From an uncultured Gammaproteobacteria bacterium (GTDB lineage: Bacteria; Patescibacteriota; Patescibacteriia; JACPHY01), in the NCBI GenBank assembly GCA_964585225.1, contig CAZPCZ010000001.1:6018-70017 (forward strand): 64,000 nucleotides of DNA, read 5' to 3'. Positions within the stretch are counted from its first letter, which is position 1. Every line of letters starts with the position of its first letter. Shown here piece after piece: positions 4,084-31,461 of the stretch. The translations under genes and the position numbers were made by a program. Below the pieces are notes generated by a model. It had not been told where the DNA came from and searched no databases. It saw only the letters and a list, made by a program, of their open reading frames with translations.

Positions 4084-5110
4084 CGGCAAACCCACGAGAT
4101 TTGCTCCCCACCCCCACGTTCTCCCCCTCCCCTCTCAGATGGGAGGGGGAGTGAGAGGGGGAGAGGAACGCCTGTGATAATGGGTGTACCTTCAGGAAGG
4201 CCTCATTACTGTACCGCGGGCTCCGGGCATCCTTCAAACGCCCACTCGCGACGAGATCGCGGATCTGCTGGATGCCGTCGTCGAGCGTGTAGCGGGGCTG
4301 GAATCCGAGCTCGCGGCGCGCGCGGGTGCTGTCGAGCCGGACATCTCCGGTTGCCGATCGGTCCGCGGGCCGGACGTCCACGCGTGTTGACGGAATATGT
4401 CGCTGGACGCGTGCGGCGAGGTCAATAATCCGCTCATTTTCGGTGCAGAGGTTGAATGGACCCGTCACCGACGTCGCGACGTGATCGGCCATCACCTTCG
4501 CAACATCGCGAACGTAACAGAATCCACGGAACTGTTGCCCACCGTGAACGGTGAGGACGCCATCCGTGCACGCGTGCATGGCGAAAAGATTTGGGACAAG
4601 ATCGAATCGCGGACGACTCATGGAGTCCGCAAGGCCGAAGAGTGTCGCGAGACGCACGACGAGCGCGCGCCCAGCGAGATGGCGCTCGGCCGCCACTTTC
4701 GTTTCCTGATACAACGTCTGCGGATGGAGCGGCGCATCTTCCGTGAGCACGCCGTCGCTCACGCCGTACGCGAGTGATGTGGACGGGAAGATGATGCGAC
4801 CGTCGTACGAACGCGCGAGCCATGCGAGCGATTGCGCATTGAGCGCCACCGCGAGCTCCGGATACAACGCACACGCACCATCTGCGACGAGCGCCGCGAG
4901 CCAGATGACCGCGTCCGCCCATGCGAGATGTGCACGGAGCCGGTCGCGGTCTCGGATGTCACCACGCACAAACGCATGCGGCTTCCGATACTCCTCCTCC
5001 CAGAGGAGACAGTCGTAGACACGAACCTCATGACCAGCCTCCGCGAGGAGGTCGGTCACCGCGCTCCCAACGTATCCCGCACCACCGACGACGAGGACGC
5101 GTTGAATCAT
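4070..5110 (-). CDS. NAD-dependent sugar epimerase/dehydratase (SDR), paralog of 30471..31460
   Basis: VLVVGGAGYVGS Rossmann motif. Blockwise similarity to the 30471 gene (VYD.LL.EE.YRK, WADAV.WLAALV.D.ACAL). C-terminal tail ...SPSHSPSHLRGEGENVGVG is encoded by palindromic element copy (a) and is about 19 aa longer than the paralog. Confidence 0.85.
   Translation of the reverse strand: MIQRVLVVGGAGYVGSAVTDLLAEAGHEVRVYDCLLWEEEYRKPHAFVRGDIRDRDRLRAHLAWADAVIWLAALVADGACALYPELAVALNAQSLAWLARSYDGRIIFPSTSLAYGVSDGVLTEDAPLHPQTLYQETKVAAERHLAGRALVVRLATLFGLADSMSRPRFDLVPNLFAMHACTDGVLTVHGGQQFRGFCYVRDVAKVMADHVATSVTGPFNLCTENERIIDLAARVQRHIPSTRVDVRPADRSATGDVRLDSTRARRELGFQPRYTLDDGIQQIRDLVASGRLKDARSPRYSNEAFLKVHPLSQAFLSPSHSPSHLRGEGENVGVGSKSRGFADGHQ
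4119..4166. repeat. GC-rich palindromic element copy (a), in-frame within the 3' end of the epimerase ORF
   Basis: ttctccccctcccctctcagatgggagggggagtgagagggggagagg. Arms are CTCCCCCTCCC / GGGAGGGGGAG. Confidence 0.7.
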
Positions 5111-5120
5111 GTACGTGCCT

Positions 5121-5173
5121 CACTCCCACCTTTTCTCCCCTCCCTCGGGGAGGGGGAGCGAGAGAGGGTGGGC
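5121..5173. repeat. GC-rich palindromic element copy (b), intergenic, in the 5' leader of the epimerase gene
   Basis: cactcccaccttttctcccctccctcggggagggggagcgagagagggtggg, with outer arms CCCACC/GGTGGG. Its reverse complement is nearly identical to copy (d). Confidence 0.7.
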
Positions 5174-5311
5174 GCAATGAGTTCACCGAAACGATTATGA
5201 GTGGCTTGATCGCACCCAGCGTACCGCACCCCCACACCGCGGGCAATGCAAAGCCCCACTCCGATGCTTGTCCGCCTTGGGCGGGGACATCGGAGCGGGG
5301 CGTGAGCAGCT

Positions 5312-6472
5312 CTACGCGATCTCGCTACCGATGCGCTGGCGCACGACCGCGTACGGGACACGACGGATCGGATGGTAGAGCAGGTACAGTACCCCGATGA
5401 TCGCCACGGCAACAACGTACAGCGCACTGCCACGCACGAAGAGCGGGAGAACGAATGCGGTCGTGAACGCGATCGACTGCACGAACCACGTGAGCGCGGA
5501 GAACGCGTCGAGCGTCGCTCCGTCCGAAACGTCCCCGACGAGTGCGAACGTGGTCGTCCGCCCGAGCCCGAAGTTCACCGCGAGGAACGCAATGGCAACG
5601 ATGAGGAGCGCTGGGCTGCCCGCGACCGCGAGGAGGACGAGTCCAGCGATGCTCGACCCGAATGTTGCGGTGACCATCCCATTGCGTCCGGTACGGTCCG
5701 AGAGCGCGCCGAACGCGTACGCGGTGAGCACCGGCGCGAGGTAGAACAGTGCGATGAGCACCCCGATGGCGGGAGTGGCCCCAAATACCTCCCCGATCTT
5801 CAGGGGGACAATACCGAGGATGAACCCCTGGATGAAGTTGAACGGGAACCAGACGATCACGATGCGACGCGCCGTTGCGCTCCGGAGCATTCGGAATGCC
5901 GCGCTCCACTCGCGACGCTTGACGTCGCCGTGGAGATCATCGAGGCGAGTGAGGACAGCGAGCGCGAGGAGTGGAATGGTTGCGAAGGCGGCGAGGCCAG
6001 CGCGGAATCCGATCGTGGGAAGGAGGATGCCGAGGAGGAGCACGCCGCTCGCTGCGCCCACGGCGAACATGGTCGCGAATCGGCCCGCGTCTGCGCCGTA
6101 TGTGGCAGGATCGCTCGCGCGGATAAGGTACGCACTCTGTGCGGTCCAGAGTACCGATCCCGCGACGCCGAGCACCATCGACGCGGCAAGAATCGCTGGT
6201 GGCGACGCAGTGAGGAGCGAGAAACCGTAGAGCGCGTACGCTGTCACCGCGACGACCATGCTCCGCTTCGCGCCGAGACGCGTGACGACGCTCGCCGCAG
6301 GCAAGCTCCCGACCATGAACGCGAGGTACACGAGGACGAGCGAGAGGAACCCGATGCGCGGGATGCCGAGGTGTTGGAAGTACGTCGTCACGTACTGCTG
6401 GAACCCATCGAATCCGAAAAAGATGAGCAGGAAGCTCACCCCGAGGAACTGTACGTTTCGCGATCTGCGCAT
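5312..6472 (-). CDS. MFS transporter
   Basis: About 12 predicted TM segments in a 386 aa hydrophobic protein. Start at the internal ATG (MRRSRNVQF...) is supported by an AAGGAG RBS 7 nt upstream. ORF-track start 6685 is rejected because its N-terminal extension is low-complexity. Confidence 0.8.
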   Translation of the reverse strand: MRRSRNVQFLGVSFLLIFFGFDGFQQYVTTYFQHLGIPRIGFLSLVLVYLAFMVGSLPAASVVTRLGAKRSMVVAVTAYALYGFSLLTASPPAILAASMVLGVAGSVLWTAQSAYLIRASDPATYGADAGRFATMFAVGAASGVLLLGILLPTIGFRAGLAAFATIPLLALAVLTRLDDLHGDVKRREWSAAFRMLRSATARRIVIVWFPFNFIQGFILGIVPLKIGEVFGATPAIGVLIALFYLAPVLTAYAFGALSDRTGRNGMVTATFGSSIAGLVLLAVAGSPALLIVAIAFLAVNFGLGRTTTFALVGDVSDGATLDAFSALTWFVQSIAFTTAFVLPLFVRGSALYVVAVAIIGVLYLLYHPIRRVPYAVVRQRIGSEIA

Positions 6473-6545
6473 AGCGACTCCTTCTGTTATGCTGGATACC
6501 TCAACGGTACGGGACACCGCACGCGTTGTCGATCCGAAATGGAAA

Positions 6546-6572
6546 GCGCCCCGCAGCGATACTGCGGGGCGC
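6546..6572 (-). terminator. Intrinsic terminator hairpin downstream of the 6622 gene
   Basis: GCGCCCCGCAG-cgata-CTGCGGGGCGC (11-bp perfect stem), followed on the minus strand by TTTCCATTT. Confidence 0.6.
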
Positions 6573-6621
6573 GATGTTGCCTCGGTGACGCATGATTCCC
6601 TCCTGTCGATGCCGTCTCTAC

Positions 6622-7179
6622 CTATCGCCGGTCCTTCGCTGCCCGCCGCTTGAGCAGCTCCAGTTCCACCTGAGACGTGCCACACTCGGCAGGCAAGATC
6701 GGCGTTTCAAACATGCGCTGATCTGCCGATCCTTCCAGGAACATGACGAGCTCGGTAATCTTGTCGCACTCGCCACGTCGGCATGCTTCCAGGAGCGTAC
6801 GTATGTGCTGAACCACGTACTCCCGGTGCCAACGCATGACCTCGTCCCTCGTGCATCCAAGCCGCGAGACAGGTACGAACTTGCGGCAATCGAATGCGGC
6901 GCGGAGGAATGACACGCGCTCCACGGCGCCACCTCGACACTCGTCTACAATCGTTCGAAGTGCGCGCACGAGCTCATCGGCGTGGGCGTACTTCTGTAGT
7001 GCCCGATCCATCGCACGCACCTTCCGAACACTCACCCCCACACCAGCAGGTACGGGAGCCTGGATGAGTGGCAAACCAAGATGCTGCAGCAGCGCCAAGA
7101 ATCGGAGCTGGAGCACTATTGCCTCCCGAGTCATGGCGTCGAGTCCGCTGATCATCGTATAGAATCGATCAACGCCCAT
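6622..7179 (-). CDS. Hypothetical protein
   Basis: 186 aa from MGVDRFYTMISGL. GAGGAAA RBS 5 nt upstream. Overlaps the HAD stop by about 10 nt. No recognisable motif. ORF-track N-terminal extension rejected. Confidence 0.5.
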   Translation of the reverse strand: MGVDRFYTMISGLDAMTREAIVLQLRFLALLQHLGLPLIQAPVPAGVGVSVRKVRAMDRALQKYAHADELVRALRTIVDECRGGAVERVSFLRAAFDCRKFVPVSRLGCTRDEVMRWHREYVVQHIRTLLEACRRGECDKITELVMFLEGSADQRMFETPILPAECGTSQVELELLKRRAAKDRR

Positions 7180-7834
7180 GTGTTTCCTCATTGGTGAGCA
7201 CTCTGTGGTGTTCGCGCAAAACGATTCGCAGCTCCTCAACGCCGACGACCGGAGTTGGATTGTACTGGTGCACTCGGAGTCCCGCTCCACGGGCCGATGC
7301 GCAGTTCGCAACGGCGTCATCCACGAGGAGAATCGTGGCCGGATCGCGGTCCTGCCAGCCGAGACCTGCGAGGATCGTGGACCATACACCGGGGTCGGTC
7401 TTCGTCATACGGATCTCGTGCGAGCGCACCACCGGACCATACCGTCCCGCGAGGTCGATGAGCTCGCGCTCGCGTGCAGTCTGCCATGCGTTCGCTGTCG
7501 TGACGAAGGCGAGCGGAACGCCTTGTCCCTTCAACGACTCGAGCACAGCGAGCACCTCCGCATCGACCGCATAGATGTGCGCGTCGTGTGCTGCACGGAC
7601 GAGCGCATCGGTGAGGTACGGTGCCTCTACCGCCTCGCGCACCGACGTTGCGAACTGCTCGCCCGTAATCCTCCCACGGGCGAATTGTCCGTACGCGCTC
7701 TGGTGGAAGAACAGCGCCCACTTGTCCGGACGCACGCCGAGCTCTGCGAGAATCGCGTACGTCACCACGTGCGTCGCGCGGACGATGACGTTCCCGACGT
7801 CGAAGAGAGTCACCTTGATCTGTTGCTCGCTCAT
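7169..7834 (-). CDS. HAD-superfamily hydrolase (subfamily IA-like)
   Basis: Start MSEQQIKVTLFDVGNVIV carries the DxG motif I. GGAGGT RBS. ATGA overlap with the upstream gene. C-terminal ...LLVDDA... is motif IV-like. Confidence 0.8.
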   Translation of the reverse strand: MSEQQIKVTLFDVGNVIVRATHVVTYAILAELGVRPDKWALFFHQSAYGQFARGRITGEQFATSVREAVEAPYLTDALVRAAHDAHIYAVDAEVLAVLESLKGQGVPLAFVTTANAWQTARERELIDLAGRYGPVVRSHEIRMTKTDPGVWSTILAGLGWQDRDPATILLVDDAVANCASARGAGLRVHQYNPTPVVGVEELRIVLREHHRVLTNEETHGR

Positions 7835-8772
7835 TCGATACCTCCTTTCGGGGTCCAGTTGAGTGCCTCGATCGCCGCGCGGCCGAGGTGGGTGAGGTTG
7901 TACTCCCACGCCTCGCCAGACAGTGCGAGGTGGATGCCGCAGGGGTGGAGCCCGCCGTCGTCACCGAAGTGGAACAGGATCGGACTCTTTCCCGCACGCG
8001 GCACGACGACCGCGACGGTCCGTCGGAGTGCGACCCACTCCGGCTCACCGCGCTCGCGATTGCCCGGACGACACTCCGTATCGAACAGCCGCCAGCCGTC
8101 CCCATTGAGGTGGAGCCGCGCGAGGTGGAGGAACGAGAAATCGCCGACCGGACCGACCGTGACGACGCCGCGGCGGCCTTCGAGCACATCCCTCCCGATC
8201 GGGAGGATGTCGATGGCCGCCTCGTACCGAGACGGAAACTCCGGACGAACGAACCCCCAGACACTCCGTTGCTCCAGGTCGAAATGTTCCTGGTGCACAC
8301 CGAGCTCCGGAGGGAGCAGGAATCGCGCCCAGCCGTCCTCGCGGCACACGCCGACCTCGACGATCTCCTCGAGCTGCTCGGCGAGGAGCTGCGCGTCTTC
8401 CGCCATGCCACCGGCGGGCTCCGCCGAGTTCTGGATCACCGGCGCCGCAGTGTTCCGCACGAGCATGACGAGCGCCTCGTTCGGCCACCGATCGAGCCCG
8501 TACTTCACGAGCAATCGCTCCATGAGCGACTCCGGGAGCCACGTGAGCGAGCGGAACGGGACGAGAATCGCCGTCGCGCCGCCAAGGAACCCGAGCGTCT
8601 GGAATTCACCCGACACACGCCGTCGAATGCGATCGAACACCTCGGGATCCGCACCCGCCTCGCTGATGTGCGTCGGCCGCGGACCTTCGACCGTTCGAAG
8701 GTCGCCGATCTTCGCAATGATGTCGCCATTCGACGCGATCGTGCCGGTTATCAGTCCTTGCATCCACGCCAT
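7831..8772 (-). CDS. Hypothetical protein (possible double cupin-like beta fold)
   Basis: 313 aa with a GGGAGGAG RBS 9 nt upstream of the ATG and translational coupling to the HAD gene. No confident family assignment. Confidence 0.55.
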   Translation of the reverse strand: MAWMQGLITGTIASNGDIIAKIGDLRTVEGPRPTHISEAGADPEVFDRIRRRVSGEFQTLGFLGGATAILVPFRSLTWLPESLMERLLVKYGLDRWPNEALVMLVRNTAAPVIQNSAEPAGGMAEDAQLLAEQLEEIVEVGVCREDGWARFLLPPELGVHQEHFDLEQRSVWGFVRPEFPSRYEAAIDILPIGRDVLEGRRGVVTVGPVGDFSFLHLARLHLNGDGWRLFDTECRPGNRERGEPEWVALRRTVAVVVPRAGKSPILFHFGDDGGLHPCGIHLALSGEAWEYNLTHLGRAAIEALNWTPKGGIE

Positions 8773-8869
8773 CGGAATGCTCCTCCCTACGGTTGCTGTT
8801 CAGTTGTGAAACAACGATCGGTGCGACCGTACCACGCTCCCACACCGCAGTCAACATCAGCACACTAAA

Positions 8870-8925
8870 CCCCGCACGTGACACTCCCCCTCGTTCTGAG
8901 GGGGAGCAGGAGGGGGTGCGGGGTC
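8870..8925. repeat. GC-rich palindromic element copy (c), intergenic between the HIT stop and the 8772 gene start
   Basis: ccccgcacgtgacactccccctcgttctgagggggagcaggagggggtgcgggg. Nested palindrome: outer CCCCGCAC/GTGCGGGG, inner CTCCCCCTC/GAGGGGGAG. Confidence 0.7.
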
Positions 8926-8942
8926 TGTGCCGAAACCGGAGA

Positions 8943-9347
8943 TCACTTGCTGCGGAATTCGCGGTGATGTTTCAAAGTTTTCACGATCTGTGTGCGGAGC
9001 TTCGACGCGAACGGAAACGTGCGTGCGCGCTTTGGCGCGTGGTGGAACACGTCGAACCCCTGCTCGTTGTGCCGCGGGACGAGGTGCCAGTGGACGTGCT
9101 TCGCTTCGTCCATGTAGATGAGGTACACCTTCTCAATGCCGAGGGTTTTCAAAAGCGCATCGCGGACGAGATCCACGACGTCCATGAGGTATTCGACCTG
9201 CGCACACGAGAGGAGATGGAGGTCGCGCACCGGCCGCTTCCACACGACGACCGTGTGTCCCTTCGTGATCGGCCGCATCGCGAGGCACGCATACACACGC
9301 GCGTCTTCGTAGACGATGGAAGGTTTTGGGGGGTTGGGGAGCGACAT
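8943..9347 (-). CDS. HIT-family nucleotide hydrolase/transferase
   Basis: Canonical histidine triad HVHWHLVPR. 134 aa. Confidence 0.85.
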   Translation of the reverse strand: MSLPNPPKPSIVYEDARVYACLAMRPITKGHTVVVWKRPVRDLHLLSCAQVEYLMDVVDLVRDALLKTLGIEKVYLIYMDEAKHVHWHLVPRHNEQGFDVFHHAPKRARTFPFASKLRTQIVKTLKHHREFRSK

Positions 9348-9458
9348 ACCACGCGTATAGCATCATCTCTTGCGCGGCGCACGTACTCCCTTCTATGATG
9401 AGGGGCGTCGAAGCCGCGCGCAATCCCGCGCACGGCAACGCTCGACACGAGGTGCCCT

Positions 9459-10589
9459 TTGCACGAACACTACGACATCGCGATCATTGGCGCTGGCATC
9501 GTCGGCTGCGCGACCGCGCGGCATCTCACGCACGTGTTCCCTGGCCGCTCGGTCGTCGTCATCGAACGGCGCGGTCGGCCGGGACTTGAGACGAGCGCTG
9601 CCTCGAGTGGGGTCATCCATTCCGGGCTTCACCTCCCGCCGGATTCCTGGAAGGCGCGGCTCGCGGTACGCGGCCGAACGCTCGTTCTCGACGCGTGCGC
9701 GGAGTACGGCGTCCCGATGCGTGCCTGCGGCATGCACGTCGTCGTCGCGCCGGGGGATGCGCCGCGCCTCTGGACCGAGGTCCGGAGCTTCCGCGAGCTC
9801 CTCCGCCGTGCGCGAACGCAGGGTGTCACGTGTTCCACCGTCCTATGGTGGAAGGTTCGTAAACACGAACCCGCGGTCCGCTGCCTCTTCGGGATCCATA
9901 TCCCGAACGTCACGGTCATTGATGTGCCGGTGCTCGTTCGCCGGCTCGCCGGAGATGCAGCGAACCACGGTGCAGCGTTTCGGTACCGCACGACAGTGAC
10001 CGGTGTCGCGGTGCGCGGCAACGCGTACGAGATCGCGACCGACAACAGCGTCGTCCATGCGCGCGCCGTCGTGAACGCCGCCGGGCTCGGCGCGACGCGT
10101 ATCGCTGCGCTCGCCGGGTTCCCGGGTCACCGCGTCGCACTCTATCGCGGCGAGTACTACGAGGTCACCGATCCCGCACTCCGCGATGCGGTGCACGGTC
10201 TCGTCTATCCCGTCTACCGCCCCGGGAGCCCGGGACTCGGCATCCACCTCACGAAGACCGTGGACGGACGACTCCTCATCGGCCCGAACGCGCGGCGGAT
10301 CGAGCGACCGGAGGATCTCGAGATCGACCGCACGCCGCCGGAGGCATTCTACGACGCGGTGCGAACATTCCTCCCGCCGCTCCGCCTCGACCACCTCCGC
10401 TACAGCCACGCCGGCATCCGCACGAAGCGGGACGACGGCACACCAGAGCCGGACTTCCACATCGAACTCGATCGTGCGGTTCCTGCCTTTGTGAACTGCA
10501 TCGGCATCGAGTCCCCAGGAATCACCGCCTCGCTCGCGATCGCCGAGCGCATCGCGGAGCTCCTCACGCCGGTGCTCCACAGCACCTAA
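9459..10589 (+). CDS. FAD-dependent oxidoreductase, L-2-hydroxyglutarate oxidase (LhgO)-like
   Basis: TTG start with GAGGTG RBS. YDIAIIGAGIVG dinucleotide-binding motif. Only plus-strand gene in the window. Confidence 0.8.
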   Translation: MHEHYDIAIIGAGIVGCATARHLTHVFPGRSVVVIERRGRPGLETSAASSGVIHSGLHLPPDSWKARLAVRGRTLVLDACAEYGVPMRACGMHVVVAPGDAPRLWTEVRSFRELLRRARTQGVTCSTVLWWKVRKHEPAVRCLFGIHIPNVTVIDVPVLVRRLAGDAANHGAAFRYRTTVTGVAVRGNAYEIATDNSVVHARAVVNAAGLGATRIAALAGFPGHRVALYRGEYYEVTDPALRDAVHGLVYPVYRPGSPGLGIHLTKTVDGRLLIGPNARRIERPEDLEIDRTPPEAFYDAVRTFLPPLRLDHLRYSHAGIRTKRDDGTPEPDFHIELDRAVPAFVNCIGIESPGITASLAIAERIAELLTPVLHST

Positions 10590-10616
10590 ACGCACCACGG
10601 CATGACCGTGGTGCGT
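10590..10616. terminator. Bidirectional intrinsic terminator between convergent genes
   Basis: ACGCACCACGG-catga-CCGTGGTGCGT (11-bp perfect stem). Followed by TTCTCCGTT on plus and TTTAGG on minus. Sits between the LhgO-like stop (10589) and the GT4 stop (10652). Confidence 0.65.
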
Positions 10617-10651
10617 TCTCCGTTCATATGGTATTCCGTGCGGCGGAATCA

Positions 10652-11905: not shown

Positions 11906-11917
11906 TGTTCCATTGCT

Positions 11918-13048: not shown

Positions 13049-14931
13049 ACGAATCCCTGATGCCGCGCCCACGACATGAGGGTATGGAGCGCCCACGGCC
13101 GTGCCCAGGTGACGCCGCCACGGTGATGCCAGAACATATCCCAGAGCTGACGGCATGCACGCACGTTGATCCCGAGTGCATTCTCCGCGGGGAACGATCG
13201 CAGGAGCTCGTCAACTTGTGGACGGAGCTGCCCTCGTAGCCATACCTCCCACGGGAATGTGAAACCCATCTTCGGCCGATTGTATACCGCTCGCGGGAGC
13301 TCCGCCTGCACCGCGCGGAGGAGGAGTGGCTTTGGAGACGCCGCATCCGAGAATGCCGAGGCCGGTGCACGAAATACTGCTTCCACGAGCGCGCGGTCGA
13401 GGTACGGAACCCGCACTTCGAGCCCGTGCGCCATGGACATGACATCCGAATCGCGCAGGAGCGTATTCGCGAGGTACCCACGGAGTTCGAGGAGCGACAC
13501 GGTTCGAGCAGCATCGAGCCCTTTGAGTTCCTCTGCGACGCCAGTCTTTGTCGACCACGCTCCACCCGATCCGGACGTCGATCCCGAGAGCAGGTGCTCG
13601 CGAACATCGGGATGGAAGAGCTGCCTCGTGATCGCGTAGCACACCATCGCGTCTCCTGACGACGTGAGGTACGCAGCGAGCTTCGCGGTGATCGGCGCAG
13701 CCGACGCCCACGTACGCGCTCCCCATGCGATCCCGTGACGAACCGAACGCGGGAGCGCGGCAACCATACGATGCGCCGCCACCATCCGAGGGATCCGACG
13801 AAATGTCGGATACCCACCGAAGACTTCATCCCCCCCTTGTCCGGAGAGGATCACCTTCACGCCCGCTGCACGGACCGCCCGCGAAATGATGAACACATTC
13901 GCTCCGTCGATCGACGGCTGATCCTGTGCCGCGAGCGCCGCGGGGAGTTCGGCCGCGAGATCCGCATCGCGGATGACGAGTTCGTGGTGACGATGACAGT
14001 ATCGTTCACCTACCTGCCGCGCGTACGCGCCCTCTGCGTACGGCGCCTCGGGGAACGTCACCGTGAACGACTCGAGCGACTCCCCCGCCCCCACGTGATG
14101 CGCGAGTACCGCGAGTGCACTTGAATCCACGCCGCCACTCAGGAAGAGGCCGACGGGCACATCGCTCACGAGGTGTCGCGCAACCGCACTCGCAAGTACG
14201 CTCGCAATCTCCGCAGGCGATGACGGGACGCTGCGCTGTGACGGGCTCCAGTATCGCTCCACCGAAACCTCCCCCGTTCGTGCTTCGAATACGAGCGTGT
14301 GCGCAGGGAGGAGCTGCGATACGCCCGCGAGGATCGTCCGTGGTGCCTGTACGGATCCGAATGCGAGGTACGACATCACCGCAGCGTGATCAATCCGCTT
14401 CGGCGCAAGGCCGGATGCCAAGAACGAACGCACCTCGGACGCAAATGCGAATCGCCCCGCGGTATCGTGTAGCCAGTAGAGTGGCTTCACGCCGACACGG
14501 TCCACTGCGAGCAGGAGTCGCTGCGCCGCCGCATCCCACAACGCGAACGCGAACATCCCATCGAGGTGGTTCACGCACGCCCGACCGTACCGCGCGTACG
14601 CTTTCAGAATGACCTCGGTGTCGCTCCCCGTTCGGAATGCCGCGCCTGCGGCCGCGAGCGACTTCCGAAGCTCGCGGTAGTTGTAGATTTCACCATTGAA
14701 CGTGATCCAATTCCCCGTTTCAGGATCACGCATGGGTTGGTGCCCCGACGGAGAGAGATCAATGATCGCAAGACGCCGATGCACGAAGCCGACTACGCGT
14801 TCGCCCATCTGCGCAAGCACCTCGATTCCCTCATCATCCGGCCCCCGGTGCGCGAGCGACGACGCGAGCGATTGCAATCGCTCGCGGGTGACGTCCTCTC
14901 GCGTTCCGATGATTCCGGCGATGCCGCACAT
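13045..14931 (-). CDS. Asparagine synthetase (glutamine-hydrolysing) family amidotransferase
   Basis: MCGIAG N-terminal Cys nucleophile, SGGVDSS PP-loop, 628 aa. Confidence 0.9.
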   Translation of the reverse strand: MCGIAGIIGTREDVTRERLQSLASSLAHRGPDDEGIEVLAQMGERVVGFVHRRLAIIDLSPSGHQPMRDPETGNWITFNGEIYNYRELRKSLAAAGAAFRTGSDTEVILKAYARYGRACVNHLDGMFAFALWDAAAQRLLLAVDRVGVKPLYWLHDTAGRFAFASEVRSFLASGLAPKRIDHAAVMSYLAFGSVQAPRTILAGVSQLLPAHTLVFEARTGEVSVERYWSPSQRSVPSSPAEIASVLASAVARHLVSDVPVGLFLSGGVDSSALAVLAHHVGAGESLESFTVTFPEAPYAEGAYARQVGERYCHRHHELVIRDADLAAELPAALAAQDQPSIDGANVFIISRAVRAAGVKVILSGQGGDEVFGGYPTFRRIPRMVAAHRMVAALPRSVRHGIAWGARTWASAAPITAKLAAYLTSSGDAMVCYAITRQLFHPDVREHLLSGSTSGSGGAWSTKTGVAEELKGLDAARTVSLLELRGYLANTLLRDSDVMSMAHGLEVRVPYLDRALVEAVFRAPASAFSDAASPKPLLLRAVQAELPRAVYNRPKMGFTFPWEVWLRGQLRPQVDELLRSFPAENALGINVRACRQLWDMFWHHRGGVTWARPWALHTLMSWARHQGFV

Positions 14932-14979
14932 AGGCGCTACGCGCGTTGAAGAACGGAGAGCAGAAGAACGGAGAAATTT

Positions 14980-15915
14980 TTAGATTGGTCGTCTTCCTCT
15001 CCCAGTAATGCCGTTCGGACCGCGCTCGACGACCACGCCCGTGAATCCGGCATCCGCGAACCACCCGCGCACGGTCGCGAGCGTCTGCGGGTGGTCGTGT
15101 GCGGGACTCAGCATGTCGAACGTATCGAGTACGGACCACTCCGCATTGAGCTCCGGTGACAGCCCGAGGTGGCTGTACTCCGCAATCGGCAGGAGCCGCG
15201 CGCCCCACCGACCCATCATGCGGCGCGCGTACCGAGCCGCAGGCATGAGGCCCGGCACCACCGCTGCAACCGTACGATAGAGTCGCTCCGGTGGCAACCG
15301 CTTCGTGATCGGCCGGAGGAGGTACTTCCATTGGAGCAGCGCCGCAGGGTCTTTCCGATACACGTCCATCGCGAGTGCGCCGCCAGGCCGTACCTGCGCC
15401 GCGAGCGATCGGAATGCCGCCGCAGGGTCTGGTGTGTGTTGGAGCACGCCGAGGCAGAGCACACGATCGAATTGTCCGGGTACGAACGGAATTGCATCAA
15501 TGCTCGCCTGAAAAATGTGGATGTTTGGGAGGTGGCCATTGTTTGCGAAGTTCGCTTCCACCGCATTGCTCAAATCGAACGACCACACGTCAGCTCCCGT
15601 AGACGCGAGTACCTCTGTGAACCGTCCTGCGCCGCAGCCGGCCTCGAGGATCCGTTCGCCCTCCATACGCTCCGGCCAGCCCGTCACTGCGAAGAACCGC
15701 TCGCGGGAAACTGAGAGTCCCGAGTGCGAATCGAGCTGTGTACGCACGTACCGATTCCACTGCACACCGAACGATGCGGCGTAGTGCTCGTGACCAACGA
15801 ACCGCGGAACACCGCGCAAGCTGAAGAAATCACTTGCGCAATGGGTGCACGTGAGCGCTCCAGCTTGTGTGATGAGCACCACGCGACACCGAGGACACGA
15901 GTAGGAAAGCATCAT
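14980..15915 (-). CDS. Class I SAM-dependent methyltransferase with N-terminal zinc-ribbon
   Basis: CPRC...CTHC zinc-ribbon. LEAGCGAGRF SAM motif I. ATGA overlap with the upstream Wzy-like gene. Confidence 0.8.
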   Translation of the reverse strand: MMLSYSCPRCRVVLITQAGALTCTHCASDFFSLRGVPRFVGHEHYAASFGVQWNRYVRTQLDSHSGLSVSRERFFAVTGWPERMEGERILEAGCGAGRFTEVLASTGADVWSFDLSNAVEANFANNGHLPNIHIFQASIDAIPFVPGQFDRVLCLGVLQHTPDPAAAFRSLAAQVRPGGALAMDVYRKDPAALLQWKYLLRPITKRLPPERLYRTVAAVVPGLMPAARYARRMMGRWGARLLPIAEYSHLGLSPELNAEWSVLDTFDMLSPAHDHPQTLATVRGWFADAGFTGVVVERGPNGITGRGRRPI

Positions 15916-17255
15916 GCGCGATCAAGCGCTCCGGTGCCTTGCACATTCGACGCACGAGCACCCCGACGTCGAATGAACCATCCGGAAACCAGTACGATGA
16001 CCAGCGGCACCAAGATGGAGAACTCCAGTATGGCCTTAATGAGCGTCTGCTGCACATCTCTGAAAAACAGAAGTGCGAGCCAGCCGGAAGTTAGTGAGTA
16101 CATTGCTCCGTACGGAACGAGCGGCTCCTGTTTCATGCGTCGGAGCAACCAGGACACACAGAAGAGGAACACCATAGAACCGATCATCCCGAAATCCACC
16201 ATGAGAGAAACAAACGCATGCATGCCGCCGTTCGGCGAATTGATATGATAGCCGAGGAGTGGCGGAGCGATGACATAGTCAAGCTTGTTCGAAAACACGA
16301 ACGACGGGATGAGGCCGATCGTCCCGGTCAGGAGCGTCAACGGAAATCGAATGTATGGGATCGCGTACGCATGGAGGAATTCGAGGAGGGAGTGGCTCAC
16401 GTTAAAGTTTTCAGAGAAGAGATGGAACACGAGATACTTCATGGTGTACTGCGTGGGATTGAGGATTTGAGCGAAGAGATTGACCCGATAGAGCTCGATG
16501 GCATGCGAGGCCACGATGAGCATGAACAAGGCGAGCGCGATGTGCCACGCCCGAAGACGACGCACGTACACTGAAAAGAATGTGAGCAACGCGAGTGCCG
16601 ACGAAAAAATGATCACCCTCCCACCGGAGGCAATGAGGACCATCACGATGATGAGGTATGCAATGGAGAACCGGTGGGCGATCGCACGCCAGAACGATCC
16701 CAATCTTTTCCGTCGCTGCCATGCGTCGGCAGTTGCGAGCATGGCAAGCGTGAAGATGAACATTGCTGCAGCGGTGAATGAACCGAGCACGCGTATCCGC
16801 GTCAATGGTCCATACTCAAAGATCGTCGGGAGCATCGAGTACCCGAACGCCACGGCAGCCACCACACCAACCACAAGGAACGCGTTCAGTACACGTCCAT
16901 CACACCATTGTCGCTTCCATTGCCGTGGATTCCGCCGTGAACCAACGAACGCGTCTCCCGCCACGAATGCACCGTACAGAAGCAAGCAGGACATGAAATA
17001 CGCCACCCATGTACGATCGGAAATCGAGGCGTAGAGCGTCTTCCACGCCACATAGGGGCTGCCGTACCCGGAGAAGTACTCATTCGTCCCAAGAGAAATC
17101 GGTATGAGGAAATAGAAGACGAATCCGCACGAGAACAAGAGGACGTGATCAATTTCAAGTCCGCGCCGCTTCCACCACCGGTACGCAATGACGAATACGA
17201 CGCATGCGTAACACAGACCCTCCAGTACGTCTCTCGCAAATACCATATTCACCAT
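15912..17255 (-). CDS. Polytopic membrane protein, O-antigen/oligosaccharide repeat-unit polymerase (Wzy/EpsG-like)
   Basis: 447 aa, at least 10 TM segments, rich in F/Y/W. Markedly lower GC (about 50%) than the flanks. Confidence 0.6.
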   Translation of the reverse strand: MVNMVFARDVLEGLCYACVVFVIAYRWWKRRGLEIDHVLLFSCGFVFYFLIPISLGTNEYFSGYGSPYVAWKTLYASISDRTWVAYFMSCLLLYGAFVAGDAFVGSRRNPRQWKRQWCDGRVLNAFLVVGVVAAVAFGYSMLPTIFEYGPLTRIRVLGSFTAAAMFIFTLAMLATADAWQRRKRLGSFWRAIAHRFSIAYLIIVMVLIASGGRVIIFSSALALLTFFSVYVRRLRAWHIALALFMLIVASHAIELYRVNLFAQILNPTQYTMKYLVFHLFSENFNVSHSLLEFLHAYAIPYIRFPLTLLTGTIGLIPSFVFSNKLDYVIAPPLLGYHINSPNGGMHAFVSLMVDFGMIGSMVFLFCVSWLLRRMKQEPLVPYGAMYSLTSGWLALLFFRDVQQTLIKAILEFSILVPLVIVLVSGWFIRRRGARASNVQGTGALDRA

Positions 17256-17261
17256 ACGCGC

Positions 17262-18899
17262 TCACTCACTGGAACCAAGATCTCGAGTGTATAGTTCATA
17301 ACCGTTCGACGCGCGTAGGAGCTCAAGGTCCTGCTGCTCCTCACGTACAATCTCCTGATCTGCCTCTACCGTGTACGCAGGGCTCTCCGGGCGCAGACCA
17401 TTGTTCATGCGGTCGAGGAGGACGTAGTTCGCGCGGTAGCGATGGTTCCTACTCTCGAGTTGTGGGAACGGCAGGACACCGCGCACGCGGAACAGACGCG
17501 GCATGAGGAACTGCTGGGTGGATACGATCGCATCGCGCGGGATTATGGCGATGAGATCATCGGCTGCGCGAACACGACCCGTCACGCGATACGCGGACCA
17601 GTGGAACGACTGCGTCCGGAACGGCGCCGGACGGAACCGATCGCTCCAGAACTGAAGCGCGAGCGGCGAGGGACCGAAGAATAACCCCGCGACGAGTACG
17701 CCGGCGCACGCGGCGACCGATGCGGCCCTCGCATTCCTCGCGTGGTCCGCGCGCGCGTGTGCCGCGAGCCATGCCGTCACACACGGCCACGAGCAGACGA
17801 ATGCCCAGAAGAGGAATGGAATCGCAGGCGCGACGTAGTAGAGGAGGTACGAGGTGTGCGTGTACGATGTCGAACTGCTCACGAGGCCAATGGCGAACGT
17901 CGCGAGCGCGGGGGTGAGCGCCGCGGGCGCAAGGAGCGGGAGGAAGAGGATCGGGAGGAAGAGCATCGCGAGGTTCGCGAATTTCACGGTGTCGGCTGCG
18001 AACGCGAGGGCACGAAGGGGATGCTGGAGGATACCGAAAATAACCTCGATGGGAGTTGCACCAAATGTACTGAAGAACCCCTGCGCGATGTGCGCTTCCG
18101 CGCCAGGACCTCGGAGTGCGGGCATCACCACCTGGGTAATCACAGCGAACGTGGCGAATCCGAGCAGCGTAGTCACTGCGCCGTGTGCACGTCGCCGCTG
18201 GAGGAGGAATAGGTACACCCCGAACATCCCGACGGTGAGCCCGACCTCTTCGCGCACGATCGTCGCGAGGATGACGAGCACGTAGTACCACCCGATCCAC
18301 TGGCGCTCCCACGCGTAGAGCATCCACAGGAGAACAGGGATCGAGAAACGAAGCATCTCGAATTCGTAGATCGTCGTGTACTGAAACGTCGGATACCAGA
18401 GGAGGAGTGCGGCCATGACCAGTGCGAAGTGGTGAGCTACCCCGCTCACGTTTTGCCTTGCACAATGTAGGCGGGCGAGGAGGAACAGCGGGATCACTGC
18501 AGACGACATCACGAGGACGTTAAGGACGAGGAGTGTCTGCGGGTACGGGAGGAGCTTGAACGGCAGCGCGAAGAGGTAGATGAGCGGAACGAAGTGGACG
18601 GAGAGGTAGTTCAATGTCCCTGGCGTGAGGAGTTCGTGTGAGAACGCGTACGGCTTGCCCGTCGTCGCGATCGAATGGAGGAGCTGGAGCCAATGCGAGA
18701 CGTCCGCGTACATGTGGAGTGACGCGTACTTCAGGAGCTGCGCGGTGAGCAGAAATATCGGCACGAACGCGATCATCACGATGAGCAGCCGTCGCGGGAC
18801 GTTCCACCCACAGCGCAGCGCGATCGTATATGCGAACATCGCAGCGACGAACGTCGCTGCGATGCCGACGGCGTAGTAGATCACGAAATCTGCATTCAT
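17262..18899 (-). CDS. Large polytopic membrane protein, DUF2079/GT-C-like (putative membrane glycosyltransferase or polymerase)
   Basis: 545 aa. About 12 N-terminal TM helices plus a C-terminal soluble domain. Family call is tentative. Confidence 0.5.
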   Translation of the reverse strand: MNADFVIYYAVGIAATFVAAMFAYTIALRCGWNVPRRLLIVMIAFVPIFLLTAQLLKYASLHMYADVSHWLQLLHSIATTGKPYAFSHELLTPGTLNYLSVHFVPLIYLFALPFKLLPYPQTLLVLNVLVMSSAVIPLFLLARLHCARQNVSGVAHHFALVMAALLLWYPTFQYTTIYEFEMLRFSIPVLLWMLYAWERQWIGWYYVLVILATIVREEVGLTVGMFGVYLFLLQRRRAHGAVTTLLGFATFAVITQVVMPALRGPGAEAHIAQGFFSTFGATPIEVIFGILQHPLRALAFAADTVKFANLAMLFLPILFLPLLAPAALTPALATFAIGLVSSSTSYTHTSYLLYYVAPAIPFLFWAFVCSWPCVTAWLAAHARADHARNARAASVAACAGVLVAGLFFGPSPLALQFWSDRFRPAPFRTQSFHWSAYRVTGRVRAADDLIAIIPRDAIVSTQQFLMPRLFRVRGVLPFPQLESRNHRYRANYVLLDRMNNGLRPESPAYTVEADQEIVREEQQDLELLRASNGYELYTRDLGSSE

Positions 18900-18915
18900 G
18901 ATGCACGTGCACCAT

Positions 18916-20172
18916 TTATGCGACAGCTGCTTGCGCGGGGGTCGCCACCGTGTGCGGCCGCACTACTGGAACCGGCAACCCGTCCTCACCGTACGAACGT
19001 CCGACCCAGTAGTGGGAGAGCTCTGGCGCGTGCATGCGGAAGCCGGGACCCGATCCATCATCGGTCTCATCAAGCCGCCGGAGAAGATCCGCGACGATGC
19101 GCTCGGAGGCCTTGCCGTCGCCCATGGGATTCGGCCACGTCTTCCCGTAGAGCGCCTCGAATTTTGCGAGGACGAACTCGGGCGGATACTTCGCCGGCTC
19201 CGCAGGATCGAACTTCACGCTCGAGCCAACGTCGTACGTCTGCGGGCGTTCGGTCGCCTTCCGCATCTGGAGGGACGGCACCTGGAGCACGCACGTCTCC
19301 TCGACGACCGTACCAGAATCCGTGATGACGCCGCGCGAGTTCACCATGAGCGCAACGAACTCGAAGTATCCGATGGGGTCCACCATGATGACGTTCTTCG
19401 GGAGCGTAAGCCCGTACTCCTGGAGCACCTTCTGCGTGCGGTAGCTCGCGGGGAAGTACACCGTCCGATCCGTGTGTCCGATGAGCTTCAGAATCGCCTC
19501 GAAGGATGAGCGGATGTGCACGTTCTCGCGCCGATGGCACGTCATGAGGTAGTACTCCCCCCTCGTGACACCACGAGGCGCGAAGAACGCCGGCGTTGCG
19601 AGCGCATCGAACTGCGCTTTCCGATCGAAGTAGTACGTCTGGAGAATCTCCACGATTGGATTGCCGTACGTGACGACGATGCTCTTTGGATTGAGCCCGC
19701 CGACCATCCCCTGGAGCTTGTACTCCGGGAAGTACGTGTAGATGACATCGGACATCTGGTCAATGAGGCGTCGGTACTTATCCTCCGGCATGCGCCAATC
19801 GTACGAATGCCAGCACCCCTCGAAATGCACGATCGGAATGTTGAGCTGGCACGCGGCAATGCACCCGACGATCGTATTCGTATCTCCGAGGAACATGACC
19901 GCATCGGGCTTGAGATCCTGGAGCACGGGCGAGAGCTTCTGGATCATCGCGCCCGCGATCTCTGCATCGGTCGTACCGGACACGCCGAGCTCGAGGTCGG
20001 GCTTCGCCACGCCGAGCTCGCGGAAGAAAATGTCCTTCAAGTTGTCCGAGTAGTGCTGTCCGGACCAGATGAACGTAATGCGATGCTTCCGCTGGGCGCG
20101 GAGCGCGTTCAAGACGAGCGATGCGCGGATGACATCTGGACGGATACCGAGCACGATTGCGAGGTGAGCCAT
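18916..20172 (-). CDS. UDP-N-acetylglucosamine 2-epimerase (WecB/NeuC family)
   Basis: Start MAHLAIVLGIRPDVIR. The ORF-track start at 20199 carries a 9-aa extension. Typical epimerase_2 pattern (GDTNT..., HFEGC-like HVEAG region, MVDPIGY). About 50 aa extra C-terminal tail. Confidence 0.85.
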   Translation of the reverse strand: MAHLAIVLGIRPDVIRASLVLNALRAQRKHRITFIWSGQHYSDNLKDIFFRELGVAKPDLELGVSGTTDAEIAGAMIQKLSPVLQDLKPDAVMFLGDTNTIVGCIAACQLNIPIVHFEGCWHSYDWRMPEDKYRRLIDQMSDVIYTYFPEYKLQGMVGGLNPKSIVVTYGNPIVEILQTYYFDRKAQFDALATPAFFAPRGVTRGEYYLMTCHRRENVHIRSSFEAILKLIGHTDRTVYFPASYRTQKVLQEYGLTLPKNVIMVDPIGYFEFVALMVNSRGVITDSGTVVEETCVLQVPSLQMRKATERPQTYDVGSSVKFDPAEPAKYPPEFVLAKFEALYGKTWPNPMGDGKASERIVADLLRRLDETDDGSGPGFRMHAPELSHYWVGRSYGEDGLPVPVVRPHTVATPAQAAVA

Positions 20173-20215
20173 AGCAAAGCTGCGAGCTGAGAGCTGCAAG
20201 CTACAAGCGAGATTG
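20173..20215 (-). promoter_or_regulatory. Conserved 5' leader motif copy 1, immediately upstream of the WecB-like ATG
   Basis: Minus strand reads CAATCTCGCTTGTAGCTTGCAGCTCTCAGCTCGCAGCTTTGCT-ATG. 33 of 38 positions are identical to the motif at 30423-30462. Confidence 0.5.
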
Positions 20216-20266
20216 GTCGTATCCTCATTGCACCGCGTACATGCGGCACTGTCAACGCGCGCCTAA

Positions 20267-21199
20267 TCATACCGTTGCGGCTGCGCACGCGCGGAGCGCT
20301 TCTGCGATCGGACGGTCGGTGCCGAATGCCGTCACGAGATCCGATCGCATCGCGAGTACGCGTTGTATGGGAGCCACATGCACGATCGGCCGTACGGTCA
20401 TCCGTTTCCCAAGTGCCTCCGCGATTGCCGTGACGAGCTCTGCCTTCGTGCATGGTACATTCGGCGCGAAGTGGAGCACGTGCGATGTTGCGCGCAGACC
20501 ATCGAATCGGTCCTCCGCGATAATCCAACGACAGAACTCCGCGAATTGGAGCGTCGTCACGCCATGCCAAATGTGATTCGTATACCCGTCGATCGTCGTA
20601 CCTTCAGGTTGTGCGGCGACCCACTCCCAAAGCCCCTCTCGTTTGTACGGACTCGGACCAATGATGGAGCACCGAACATTGAGGGCATTCGGCGCTCGAC
20701 CTTCGCCGAGAAGCTTGGTGCGGCCGTACGTGTCCGTCGCATCCGGCGGGTCGGCCTCGGTATATGCACGTATGCCCACCCCCTCTCGCTCCCCCTCCCG
20801 AGGGGAGGGGGAGAAACTCGAACCGCAAAATACTCCGTCGGTCGACATGTGGATCACGTTGACCCCGCGCTGTGCCGCTGATGCCGCGAGCACGTGTGGA
20901 AATTCCGCGTTCACGCGGATCGCTCGCGCGACTGATGCGGGGTCACTCTCATCAACATGCCGCGCGGTGACGCCGATGCAATTGATGACGAAATCAGTGC
21001 GCGCGAGGAGCTGCTCCAATGTCGTTCGGTGTGAGATTTCTCGCTCGTCGCTCGAAATGACACCAGGGGGAAAAGCGACCGCATCGAATACGTCCCGCCC
21101 CACACCCCGAATCGTAAACCGCGCATCCGAGGCCAAAACATGCTCGACCATGTGGCCGAGCATGCCGCGGTTACCGAGGATGAGGACACGATATGCCAT
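20267..21199 (-). CDS. dTDP-4-dehydrorhamnose reductase (RmlD)-like NDP-sugar reductase with in-frame palindromic-element insertion
   Basis: RVLILGNRGMLG Rossmann motif. STDGVF...YTE.DPP....YGRTKL pattern. About 17 extra aa (SSFSPSPREGEREGVGI) between FCG and RAYTE are encoded by element copy (d). Confidence 0.8.
   Translation of the reverse strand: MAYRVLILGNRGMLGHMVEHVLASDARFTIRGVGRDVFDAVAFPPGVISSDEREISHRTTLEQLLARTDFVINCIGVTARHVDESDPASVARAIRVNAEFPHVLAASAAQRGVNVIHMSTDGVFCGSSFSPSPREGEREGVGIRAYTEADPPDATDTYGRTKLLGEGRAPNALNVRCSIIGPSPYKREGLWEWVAAQPEGTTIDGYTNHIWHGVTTLQFAEFCRWIIAEDRFDGLRATSHVLHFAPNVPCTKAELVTAIAEALGKRMTVRPIVHVAPIQRVLAMRSDLVTAFGTDRPIAEALRACAAATV
20776..20815. repeat. GC-rich palindromic element copy (d), inserted in-frame inside the RmlD-like CDS
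   Basis: ccaccccctctcgctccccctcccgaggggagggggagaaa. Near-identical to the reverse complement of copy (b). Confidence 0.75.
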
Positions 21200-31460: not shown

Positions 31461-31461
31461 A

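Follow-up and report, generated by a model that had tools for sequence, protein, structure and literature searches.

Short palindromic repeats lying in frame within genes of probable Patescibacteria resemble Rickettsia palindromic elements in behaviour

The 64,000-nucleotide stretch of contig CAZPCZ010000001.1 analysed here (the window) carries a polysaccharide-biosynthesis cluster that, on a gene map built from GC content at third codon positions (GC3) together with Pfam, is read almost entirely from the minus strand. Scattered within it are four copies (a to d) of a short, GC-rich nested palindrome. Copy d lies in frame inside the gene for an RmlD-like sugar-nucleotide reductase, copy a coincides with the end of an epimerase gene of the short-chain dehydrogenase/reductase (SDR) type, and copies b and c are intergenic (Table 1). 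The proteins nearest to those of the host bear the name Candidatus Uhrbacteria, and the lineage probably belongs to the Patescibacteria, or candidate phyla radiation (CPR), and is Uhrbacteria-like as judged by the names of best hits. The same element recurs in frame within unrelated genes of other contigs, and it is this residence in coding sequence that we seek to explain.

Table 1. Copies of the element and associated genes in the window, followed by genes on other contigs in which the element lies in frame (given by locus)
Feature	Location	Strand	Description
Copy a	4103-4169	minus	Full nested palindrome, last ~20 codons of the epimerase open reading frame (ORF) (...SPSHSPSHLRGEGENVGVG...); nhmmer E=2e-7; sequence ...CCCCACCCCCacgttCTCCCCCTCCCctctcagatGGGAGGGGGAGtgagaGGGGGAGAGG...
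Copy b	5124-5173	plus	Full-form element, antisense to genes; nhmmer E=4e-12; sequence CCCACCttttCTCCCC-TCCCtcggGGAGGGGGAGcgagagaGGGTGGG
Copy c	8869-8924	plus	Divergent member, 9-bp inner stem, CCCCGCAC/GTGCGGGG outer stem; nhmmer E=0.1; sequence CCCCGCACgtgacaCTCCCCCTCgttctGAGGGGGAGcaggagggGGTGCGGGG
Copy d	20774-20815	minus	42-nt half-form: T-run, 11-bp hairpin, CGAGAG spacer, GGGGGTGGG arm; nhmmer E=5e-14; sequence GCCCACCCCCtctcgCTCCCCCTCCCgagGGGAGGGGGAGaa
RmlD-like sugar-nucleotide reductase, 310 aa	20267-21199	minus	Pfam RmlD_sub_bind E=1.6e-20; hosts copy d
SDR epimerase/dehydratase, 346 aa	4070-5110	minus	Pfam Epimerase E=1.8e-26, residues 5-282; hosts copy a
Cupin-type sugar isomerase/epimerase ORF	3556-4095	minus	Pfam dTDP_sugar_isom E=8e-10; downstream of epimerase
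GyrB	L136		Between Toprim and C-terminal domain
PheT	L153 = L158		Inside tRNA_synthFbeta domain
MnmA	L162		Four copies in one gene; against solved MnmA, ATGHYARVfspsqgegeREGVG / ATGHYARVA--------RDEDG
VKOR-family membrane protein	L137, L186		Two orthologues, same site
PMT/GT39 glycosyltransferase	L130		
GT4 glycosyltransferase	L166		In interdomain linker
GT2 glycosyltransferase	L176		
Phosphoglycerate kinase (pgk)	L148		40-43% GC relative; extra loop against 1vpe
ManC-like nucleotidyltransferase	L148		40-43% GC relative
DHH/RecJ-like protein	L187		40-43% GC relative
DUF3048 protein	L139		40-43% GC relative

The copies stand far outside chance expectation. For the 9-mer CTCCCCCTC the window has 12 occurrences where chance would give 0.4, and none of 100 shuffles reached 12; the full palindrome pattern occurs twice where 0 is expected. 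An unbiased scan of the 64 kb for homopurine/homopyrimidine palindromes (9-nt arms, at most 1 mismatch, gap of at most 15) returned exactly four sites, which are copies a to d, and an nhmmer profile built from 15 aligned copies matched these four and nothing else. The original prediction of four copies within 17 kb was thus right as to number and place, with a chance expectation of nil, and copy d is indeed close to the reverse complement of copy b (~90% identical in the nhmmer alignment). Its description of shared arms and loop holds overall, but the left arm of copy b has a 1-nt deletion (CTCCCC-TCCC), and copy c has arms of only 9 nt (CTCCCCCTC/GAGGGGGAG) and different outer arms. Because its profile score is so marginal, the membership of copy c in the family is probable and not certain. 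The inner hairpin spans 25-31 nt and the full form ~60 nt, and all 15 aligned copies end in a T-run/CTCC on one side and in GGGGTGGGG on the other. All four copies fall within positions 1-21000, the sugar-nucleotide/glycan part of the window, and none within 21001-64000, a distribution with a probability of ~0.01 under uniform placement. Beyond the four hairpins, the exact 11-mer of the inner arms occurs in the window only at 32040-32093, in a G-rich tandem repeat (two copies of the 24-bp direct repeat GGTGGAACCGTCGGGGGAGGGGGA) that lies inside a 577-aa ORF without a Pfam match (31462-33195) and would encode a Pro-rich repeat on the minus strand. We do not count this repeat as a family member: it shares GGGAGGGGGAG but is not palindromic.

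Strong nested hairpins are predicted for all four copies, with energies of -25 to -50 kcal/mol and z as low as -6.3, and each folds significantly better than shuffled sequence on at least one strand; copy a reaches -49.9 kcal/mol (z -4.5) and copy c has z of -4.1/-6.3. The sense strands of copies a and d also match the canonical G-quadruplex motif (G3+N1-7 x4), of which there are only 4 per 64 kb, and with G-quadruplex folding enabled the hairpin is still the predicted minimum-energy structure. A search against the Rfam covariance models gave nothing at gathering score, only sub-threshold matches to generic hairpins (miRNA precursor), and nothing meaningful at a permissive E-value threshold. 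None of the 4 window sites was called terminator-like by a terminator scan, and no U-tract follows any of them; the T-run comes ahead of the hairpin, and on the opposite strand there is an A-run after it.

Copy d is the clearest case of residence within a gene. It adds exactly 14 codons (TTC TCC CCC TCC CCT CGG GAG GGG GAG CGA GAG GGG GTG GGC), encoding FSPSPREGEREGVG. The frame is preserved, as had been proposed, but the insert measures 14 codons (42 nt) and not 17, the neighbouring SS and IRA residues being the native 5-residue G-xxxxx-Y linker. A homologue search with the reductase (P0001) returned 527 proteins. Eighteen were aligned (A1), and the segment that separates the STDGVF strand from the YxxxK catalytic motif is G-xxxxx-Y in most of them, as against 19 residues in the window protein. 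The insertion-free alleles that the original prediction called for exist both here (P0002-P0006 and P0008-P0011) and for the epimerase discussed below. Two homologues do share an insert at this position, which the original prediction would have taken as the mark of an ancient protein feature: P0007 (61% identical) shares with the window protein the element of copy d, its codon position, its orientation and its frame, and P0077 (43% identical, on a 44% GC contig) has a different nested palindrome at the same loop, CCCTCACCC-CACCCTCTCCC-TAA-GGGAGAGGGTG-...-GGGTGAGGG, whose arm substitutions are mutually compensated. Yet each has insert-free close relatives, and for this reason the shared site appears from the alignment to be a permissive or hot site and not an ancient feature. 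In a neighbour-joining tree P0001 stands beside the insert-free P0002 and P0007 beside the insert-free P0011 (80% identical to P0007); since both insert-bearing proteins have insert-free neighbours, the tree would imply that the insert was gained at least twice at a permissive or preferred site, or else gained once and lost at least five times.

The insert leaves the fold of the reductase apparently undisturbed. An AlphaFold2 model on A1 (pLDDT 86, pTM 0.86) has two low-confidence coils only, residues 128-140, which are those of the element and have a pLDDT below 50, and residues 45-56; in this prediction the insert is a disordered surface loop and the fold is intact. When solved structures are searched with a profile, the flanks align to RmlD 1vl0 and MAT2B, neither of which has the insert, and the insert falls within the loop that follows the STDgVF strand, ahead of the catalytic YxxxK; P0001 as a single sequence had no match in the Protein Data Bank, whereas the profile did. 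The insert-bearing allele is identical in five contigs from four samples and three pipelines (JGI, with three samples, ENA and NCBI), and is found in L160 as well. A second palindromic segment lies in frame near the N-terminus of the same gene (21026-21066, minus strand): GGTGTCATTTCGAGCGACGAGCGAGAAATCTCACACC, encoding GVISSDEREISH, which corresponds to the other low-confidence coil (residues 45-56, pLDDT below 50). Variants stand at the same place in orthologues among P0002-P0011 (VIASRGEAIS, VIASVSAREAI; GTCATTGCGAGC...GCAATC), and the segment is missing from P0006, P0008, P0010 and P0077. This segment has the look of an in-frame repeat from a different family that is older and has been passed on vertically.

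At the epimerase gene the element has come to lie at the end of the coding sequence. More than 20 orthologues (73-89% identity) read ...SPRYSNEAFLKxHPLSxAFL and end within the next 8-12 residues, without the tail of the window protein, which continues for 26 residues past ...AFL (SPSHSPSHLRGEGENVGVGSKSRGFADGHQ) and is read straight through copy a. The earlier claim that copy a forms this tail is therefore sound, except that the tail is these 26 residues long. By comparison with the orthologues, copy a seems to have replaced the native C-terminus and stop codon. The paralogue at 30471-31499 lacks the tail, as had been noted, and its C-terminus is unrelated. On the other side, the putative GTG start (4095) of the cupin-type isomerase ORF overlaps the end of copy a, whose 3' G-arm (GGGGAG) lies 8 nt upstream of it. 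In four epimerase orthologues (P0122, P0124, P0125 and P0131) the usual tail is replaced by ...ILRSGATKDLREQPA, ILRSSATKDLTQA or ILRSEVTKDLTRA; at the protein level, at which they were compared, these ends suggest that translation runs on into a repeat of a further family located at this end of the gene.

The other two copies had been assigned to intergenic leaders. Both are intergenic. From copy b it is 10 nt to the epimerase ATG (5110) that lies downstream, and the stop codon of a major facilitator superfamily (MFS) transporter gene (5312) is 140 nt upstream; copy c is not simply in a leader, since it lies 18 nt past the stop codon of a HIT-family gene (8943) and ~97 nt before the start of gene 7831-8772. 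No empty site for copies a to c could be aligned, as the closest locus, L189, whose epimerase is 89% identical, has rearranged, unalignable intergenic DNA; L189 and two further related loci, L126 and L127 (15-20 kb each), contain zero copies. Just downstream of the MFS transporter stop, at 5253-5301, stands another hairpin (GCCCCACTCCGATG...CATCGGAGCGGGGC), and a similar one, CGCTCCGATGGGCGGTCTCCGCCAAAGGCGGA, lies upstream of the epimerase orthologue in L189; they may represent an additional repeat family or a terminator that has been conserved. Between the two intergenic copies, ~1.1 kb (6686-7830) holds no confident gene by the GC3 criterion, and a 255-aa ORF (6622-7389, minus strand) and a 543-aa ORF (7178-8809, plus strand) have no Pfam matches.

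The element is not confined to the window. A metagenome scan with the high-GC variant (hairpin, spacer and GGGGTGGG) returned 59 stretches, 12 of which carry the unit of copies b and d, T-run-CTCCCCCTCCC-loop-GGGAGGGGGAG-CGAGAG-GGGGTGGGG, the T-run being TTTT. A unit of 42-48 nt with the 3' G-arm only is the dominant form in the high-GC lineage, and its recovery from at least 11 contigs other than the window bears out the expectation of further copies. Five of the stretches with the b/d unit come from metagenome 3300009444 and six from Ga0137796, and the RmlD allele of the window is present in both. Genes on these contigs were called by GC3, translated and then checked against Pfam. In-frame residence, for which behaviour like that of Rickettsia palindromic elements (RPEs) had been suggested, turned out to be recurrent: it is seen in gyrB, pheT, mnmA and pgk and in genes for VKOR, PMT, GT2, GT4, RecJ-like, ManC-like and DUF3048 proteins (Table 1). 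Pfam domains span or flank the element in these genes, and the frames continue across every intragenic copy. Eight of 11 high-GC copies outside the window are intragenic, against 2 of 4 within it. A 44% GC contig (L128), whose proteins are identical to ones named 'Parcubacteria group bacterium GW2011', has its own variants inside genes for DUF2079 (twice), asparagine synthase and a GT4 glycosyltransferase, and another at the stop codon of an RmlD-like gene.

Copies occur in both orientations. The pyrimidine arm always precedes the purine arm, so that the encoded peptide is rich in Ser/Pro/Thr and then in Gly/Glu/Arg. The three frames are not used alike: of 17 coding copies, 13 read SPS/EGE (TCC-CCC-TCC / GAG-GGG-GAG), 4 read PPP/GRG (CCC-CCT-CCC / GGG-AGG-GGG) and none reads LPL/GGG, the hydrophobic CTC-CCC-CTC frame, an outcome of probability (2/3)^17 ~0.001. 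Such a bias would be expected if the inserts were translated and filtered by selection on the protein. Copies in unrelated genes are ~90% identical as DNA, and in related families the arms vary in a compensated manner (CACCCTCTCCC pairs with GGGAGAGGGTG, and CCTCCCCTTA with TAAGGGGAGG); therefore palindromy itself is maintained. No direct repeats indicative of a target-site duplication flank 12 aligned copies, among which no close empty site defines the exact ends. Concatenated translations of the element, searched against a collection of 5.8 billion proteins, yielded one candidate that shared words and none that scored. The phosphoglycerate kinase of L148 (7275-8603) has a second extra segment at residues ~85-105 (...NPKSEIRNPKQIQMTKIQNSKL...) that is missing from the Thermotoga enzyme and resembles translated AT-rich tandem repeats (gaattttgaattttga...) flanking elements in AUK069 contigs.

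Relatives of the element extend to genomes of low GC content. A scan of 185,579 reference genomes with the inner hairpin gave at least 120 stretches, and among the matches listed a nested architecture, CCCTCCCCCACC-ttaatc-CTCCCCCTCCC-nnn-GGGAGGGGGAG-gatata-GGTGGGGGAGGG, is found in metagenome-assembled genomes (MAGs) of 26-42% GC: AUK048, AUK056, AUK067, AUK069, CALGBJ01, 'Candidatus Paceibacterota' and 'Candidatus Saccharibacteria'. A 'Candidatus Uhrbacteria' MAG of 56% GC has a related form made up solely of the inner hairpin and the 3' G-arm. In the low-GC MAGs the density rises to four copies per 5 kb, and 124 kb of their loci contain 45 hairpins, 34 perfect and 11 degenerate. All 79 occurrences of the 11-mer in these 124 kb sit in hairpins (68 in perfect and 11 in degenerate ones), with no true singleton. 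These elements are mostly intergenic or at the edges of open frames, and their spacers carry TAA/TAG in two of three frames. Some 10-20 nt beyond the G-arm of several of them there is a conserved motif, approximately cgTTACCAAAgTGgTTgGCAATTAca (L035 at ~1380-1420 and ~2590-2640, L042 at 5912-5936, and also L052, L053, L041 and L118), so that the nested palindrome may belong, as one of its ends, to a longer repeated unit, or may adjoin promoter-like sequence. A separate 27-nt hairpin without outer arms, CTCCCCCTCCC-(TCAAG/CTTGA/ACAAG/CTTGC)-GGGAGGGGGAG, occurs by the dozen in Acetobacteraceae MAGs, Inquilinus and Sphingomonas (L001-L120) and is scattered in other phyla too. We set these hairpins aside as family members for want of outer arms; those of the Acetobacteraceae and other Alphaproteobacteria are probably an unrelated family, similar to repetitive extragenic palindromes (REPs), that converged on the same 11-mer. 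The three matches in viral contigs are all plain hairpins without outer arms, with no sign of a phage vehicle.

Why should such a palindrome recur within so many genes? It is likely, in our judgement, that copies a to d belong to a selfish palindromic DNA repeat which, though not autonomous, spreads through and among the genomes of a Patescibacteria/CPR lineage. Our verdict on the family is that it is RPE-like in behaviour but not homologous to RPEs, and that it is neither a REP, nor a terminator, nor an uptake sequence. Its unit would consist of an 11-bp homopyrimidine/homopurine inner hairpin (CTCCCCCTCCC-loop-GGGAGGGGGAG), spacers of 5-7 nt and one or two outer arms (CCCCACCCC/GGGGTGGGG). 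Copies would land anywhere and survive in two kinds of place. At gene boundaries they would overwrite a stop codon (copy a) or occupy a leader position (copies b and c), and inside genes they would persist where their length is a multiple of three, the frame is the Ser/Pro...Gly/Glu/Arg one and the protein has a surface loop at that point (copy d), with translation of the added codons into a short disordered loop. Since no target-site duplication is seen, our best guess for mobilisation, albeit a tentative one that we would sooner doubt than defend, is a hairpin-recognising single-strand enzyme of the HUH/Y1 type acting in trans; recombination or gene conversion is the alternative.

A rather unlikely alternative is that the hairpins are selected cis-acting RNA or DNA signals (intercistronic structures that stabilise or process mRNA and have a purine-rich 3' arm serving also as a Shine-Dalgarno sequence, or a hairpin/G-quadruplex switch) and the coding copies their tolerated by-products, a scenario that could be reconciled with selfish spread through exaptation. 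Three of the four window copies are indeed at gene boundaries, and a 3' purine arm stands at Shine-Dalgarno distance from the GTG at 4095 (8 nt, copy a) and from an ATG in L178 (7 nt), while in L147 a gene starts at 322, right after the element at 280-324, with ~5 nt spacing by sequence reading. The G-quadruplex matches of copies a and d and a core kept over very different GC contents would also fit. However, the sites are not terminator-like and have no U-tract, their orientation relative to transcription is mixed, no Rfam family matches them, and the hairpin remains the predicted minimum even with G-quadruplexes enabled. In the low-GC MAGs, moreover, 11 of 36 arms have any start codon within 60 nt, at scattered distances, and the supply of Shine-Dalgarno sequences as a general function finds no support there; it is plausible for individual copies only. 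Nor could gene-specific regulation explain residence in more than 12 unrelated enzymes at non-homologous positions.

We give far less credence to the idea that the 11-mer is a recognition sequence, for DNA uptake or otherwise, akin to the DNA uptake sequence or uptake signal sequence (DUS/USS), accumulating in naturally competent CPR cells through uptake bias and recombination, with inverted pairs as in Neisseria. The copy density in low-GC MAGs, a conserved core with lineage-specific 'dialects' and the presence in coding as well as intergenic DNA speak for it, but the 11-mer is never a singleton in the low-GC loci and in the window lies outside the hairpins only in the tandem repeat at 32040-32093; point substitution is the main origin of uptake sequences, whereas here whole 42-nt blocks are extra relative to orthologues; and the 64-kb window has only 4 copies. 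Slighter still is the prospect that the extra peptides are ancient or convergently selected low-complexity linkers whose DNA palindromy is incidental. P0001, P0007 and P0077 do carry an insert at the same loop, but in each case the sister is without one; the DNA unit also turns up outside coding sequence, takes either orientation and, where coding, is read in two frames with distinct peptide products; and ~90% DNA identity in unrelated genes is far above what selection on protein would give; the intergenic copies and the use of several frames already refute this explanation. The least credible possibility of all is an artefact of metagenome assembly, through chimeric joins or repeat-induced misassembly. 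The source of the window is a MAG contig and short GC-rich repeats can confuse assemblers, but the RmlD allele is the same across samples and pipelines, and neither frames nor Pfam domains are broken across any intragenic copy.

Several points nevertheless weigh against selfish spread as we propose it. The 11-mer core is conserved over genomes of 26-65% GC. Selfish repeats are normally confined to one species, so that such breadth is out of the ordinary and hints at some constraint in addition to selfish spread. The other contigs that bear copies share metagenomes with the window and may or may not be from the same genome. The common site, orientation and frame in P0001 and P0007 could reflect one old insertion with at least five losses, or a site preference. 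No target-site duplication is visible and no clean filled/empty pair above 90% identity documents an actual insertion event, and no mobilising gene, RAYT genes included, is a candidate, transposases having been neither searched for nor testable on fragments. Translation of the insert, finally, has been inferred and not observed. What we infer, then, is mobility as the cause and translation as the fate of the insert; a repeat family that is present in some orthologues and absent from others, that lies in frame in many intact genes with a bias of frame, and that maps to a loop, is what we observe.

The breadth of the core raises a bolder possibility, on which we would place little weight: that the nested palindrome is a pan-CPR element whose hairpin, or hairpin/G-quadruplex alternative, is recognised by conserved trans-acting machinery, perhaps a single-strand transposase found throughout the CPR or a nucleic-acid-binding factor of the host. 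If so, these elements and the sister families present in the same genes (VIAS..EAI, ILRSxATKDL, IRNPKQ...) would rank as a major origin, hitherto undescribed, of loop insertions and could account for much of the 'extra' sequence in proteins of reduced genomes. Conservation of the core over a 40-point range of GC content could help to track down the enzyme or factor by which it is recognised. For the annotation and phylogenetics of CPR bacteria, the repeat is a searchable motif that explains lineage-specific inserts of 14-20 residues and odd C-terminal tails; left unmasked, such inserts can distort alignments and structure predictions. Tolerance of selfish DNA in essential genes (gyrB, pheT, pgk, mnmA, recJ) may follow generally from small populations and genome reduction.

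Insertions in essential coding sequences are known from other systems. The 'byp' elements of Magnusiomyces mitochondria and the hop in T4 gene 60 involve GC-rich hairpin insertions that break the frame and are skipped by the ribosome. Unlike byps, every copy described here keeps the frame and has no stop codon, and the frames are used with a bias, which makes translation by read-through a simpler account than bypassing. Very small dispersed repeats also exist in cyanobacteria, the SDRs of 21-27 nt and HIP1, reportedly treated by Elhai and colleagues in 2008. As tiny hairpin-forming mobile repeats that lie inside genes and other repeats, with an unknown mechanism of mobilisation, these cyanobacterial repeats resemble our element, but they differ in sequence, size and phylum, and to our knowledge systematic in-frame residence in housekeeping enzymes has not been emphasised for them.

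Miniature inverted-repeat transposable elements (Correia/NEMIS, ERIC, BOX, Nezha) are likewise non-autonomous and may fuse or extend ORFs and supply promoter- or Shine-Dalgarno-like signals (PMC10969869). They are, however, 100-400 bp long and have terminal inverted repeats derived from insertion sequences as well as target-site duplications, neither of which we see. REPs and REPINs, which are associated with RAYT transposases, are palindromes of 20-40 nt with a GTAG/CGTC tetranucleotide at one end (PMC3733652, PMC3116915, PMC2817692). Like our element, they are short, GC-rich, imperfect palindromes present in many copies, frequently at the ends of genes and sometimes clustered, and no target-site duplication is seen; in contrast to them, the 15 aligned copies have no GTAG/CGTC tag, the element is not extragenic, and its hairpin is nested and not simple.

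The closest parallel is with the RPEs. RPE-1 to RPE-10 are palindromes found between genes and in frame inside unrelated functional genes (Ogata et al. 2000, 2002, summarised in PMC10969869), ~100-150 bp long and encoding peptides of 30-50 residues, with about half of the copies intragenic (PMC10969869). Our element, too, is a multi-copy palindrome residing between genes and in frame within unrelated intact genes, with an intragenic share (8 of 11, plus 2 of 4 in the window) comparable to the RPE half; the encoded peptide lies on the protein surface, there are several related families, no transposase is known, and the hosts are host-dependent bacteria with reduced genomes. Homology is nonetheless very unlikely, because the nearest proteins to those of the host are named Candidatus Uhrbacteria; the analogy that we draw is one of behaviour only, the RPE consensus not having been compared. 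The unit here is three times shorter, at 42-60 nt, and encodes 14-20 residues (42 nt and 14 aa in copy d), its arms are purely homopurine/homopyrimidine and GC-rich, its host is a patescibacterium and not a member of the Rickettsiales, and its core is common to genomes of 26-65% GC. In the literature, our coverage of which is incomplete so that an earlier description is possible, we found no account of palindromic repeats inside CPR/Patescibacteria genes. What is new here, then, is a set of RPE-like protein-coding palindromes that are far smaller, differ in composition, belong to a different radiation and have a core conserved across lineages. Protein-coding palindromic repeats have hitherto been treated as nearly a peculiarity of Rickettsia, and the same behaviour now appears in an unrelated radiation of host-dependent bacteria with reduced genomes.

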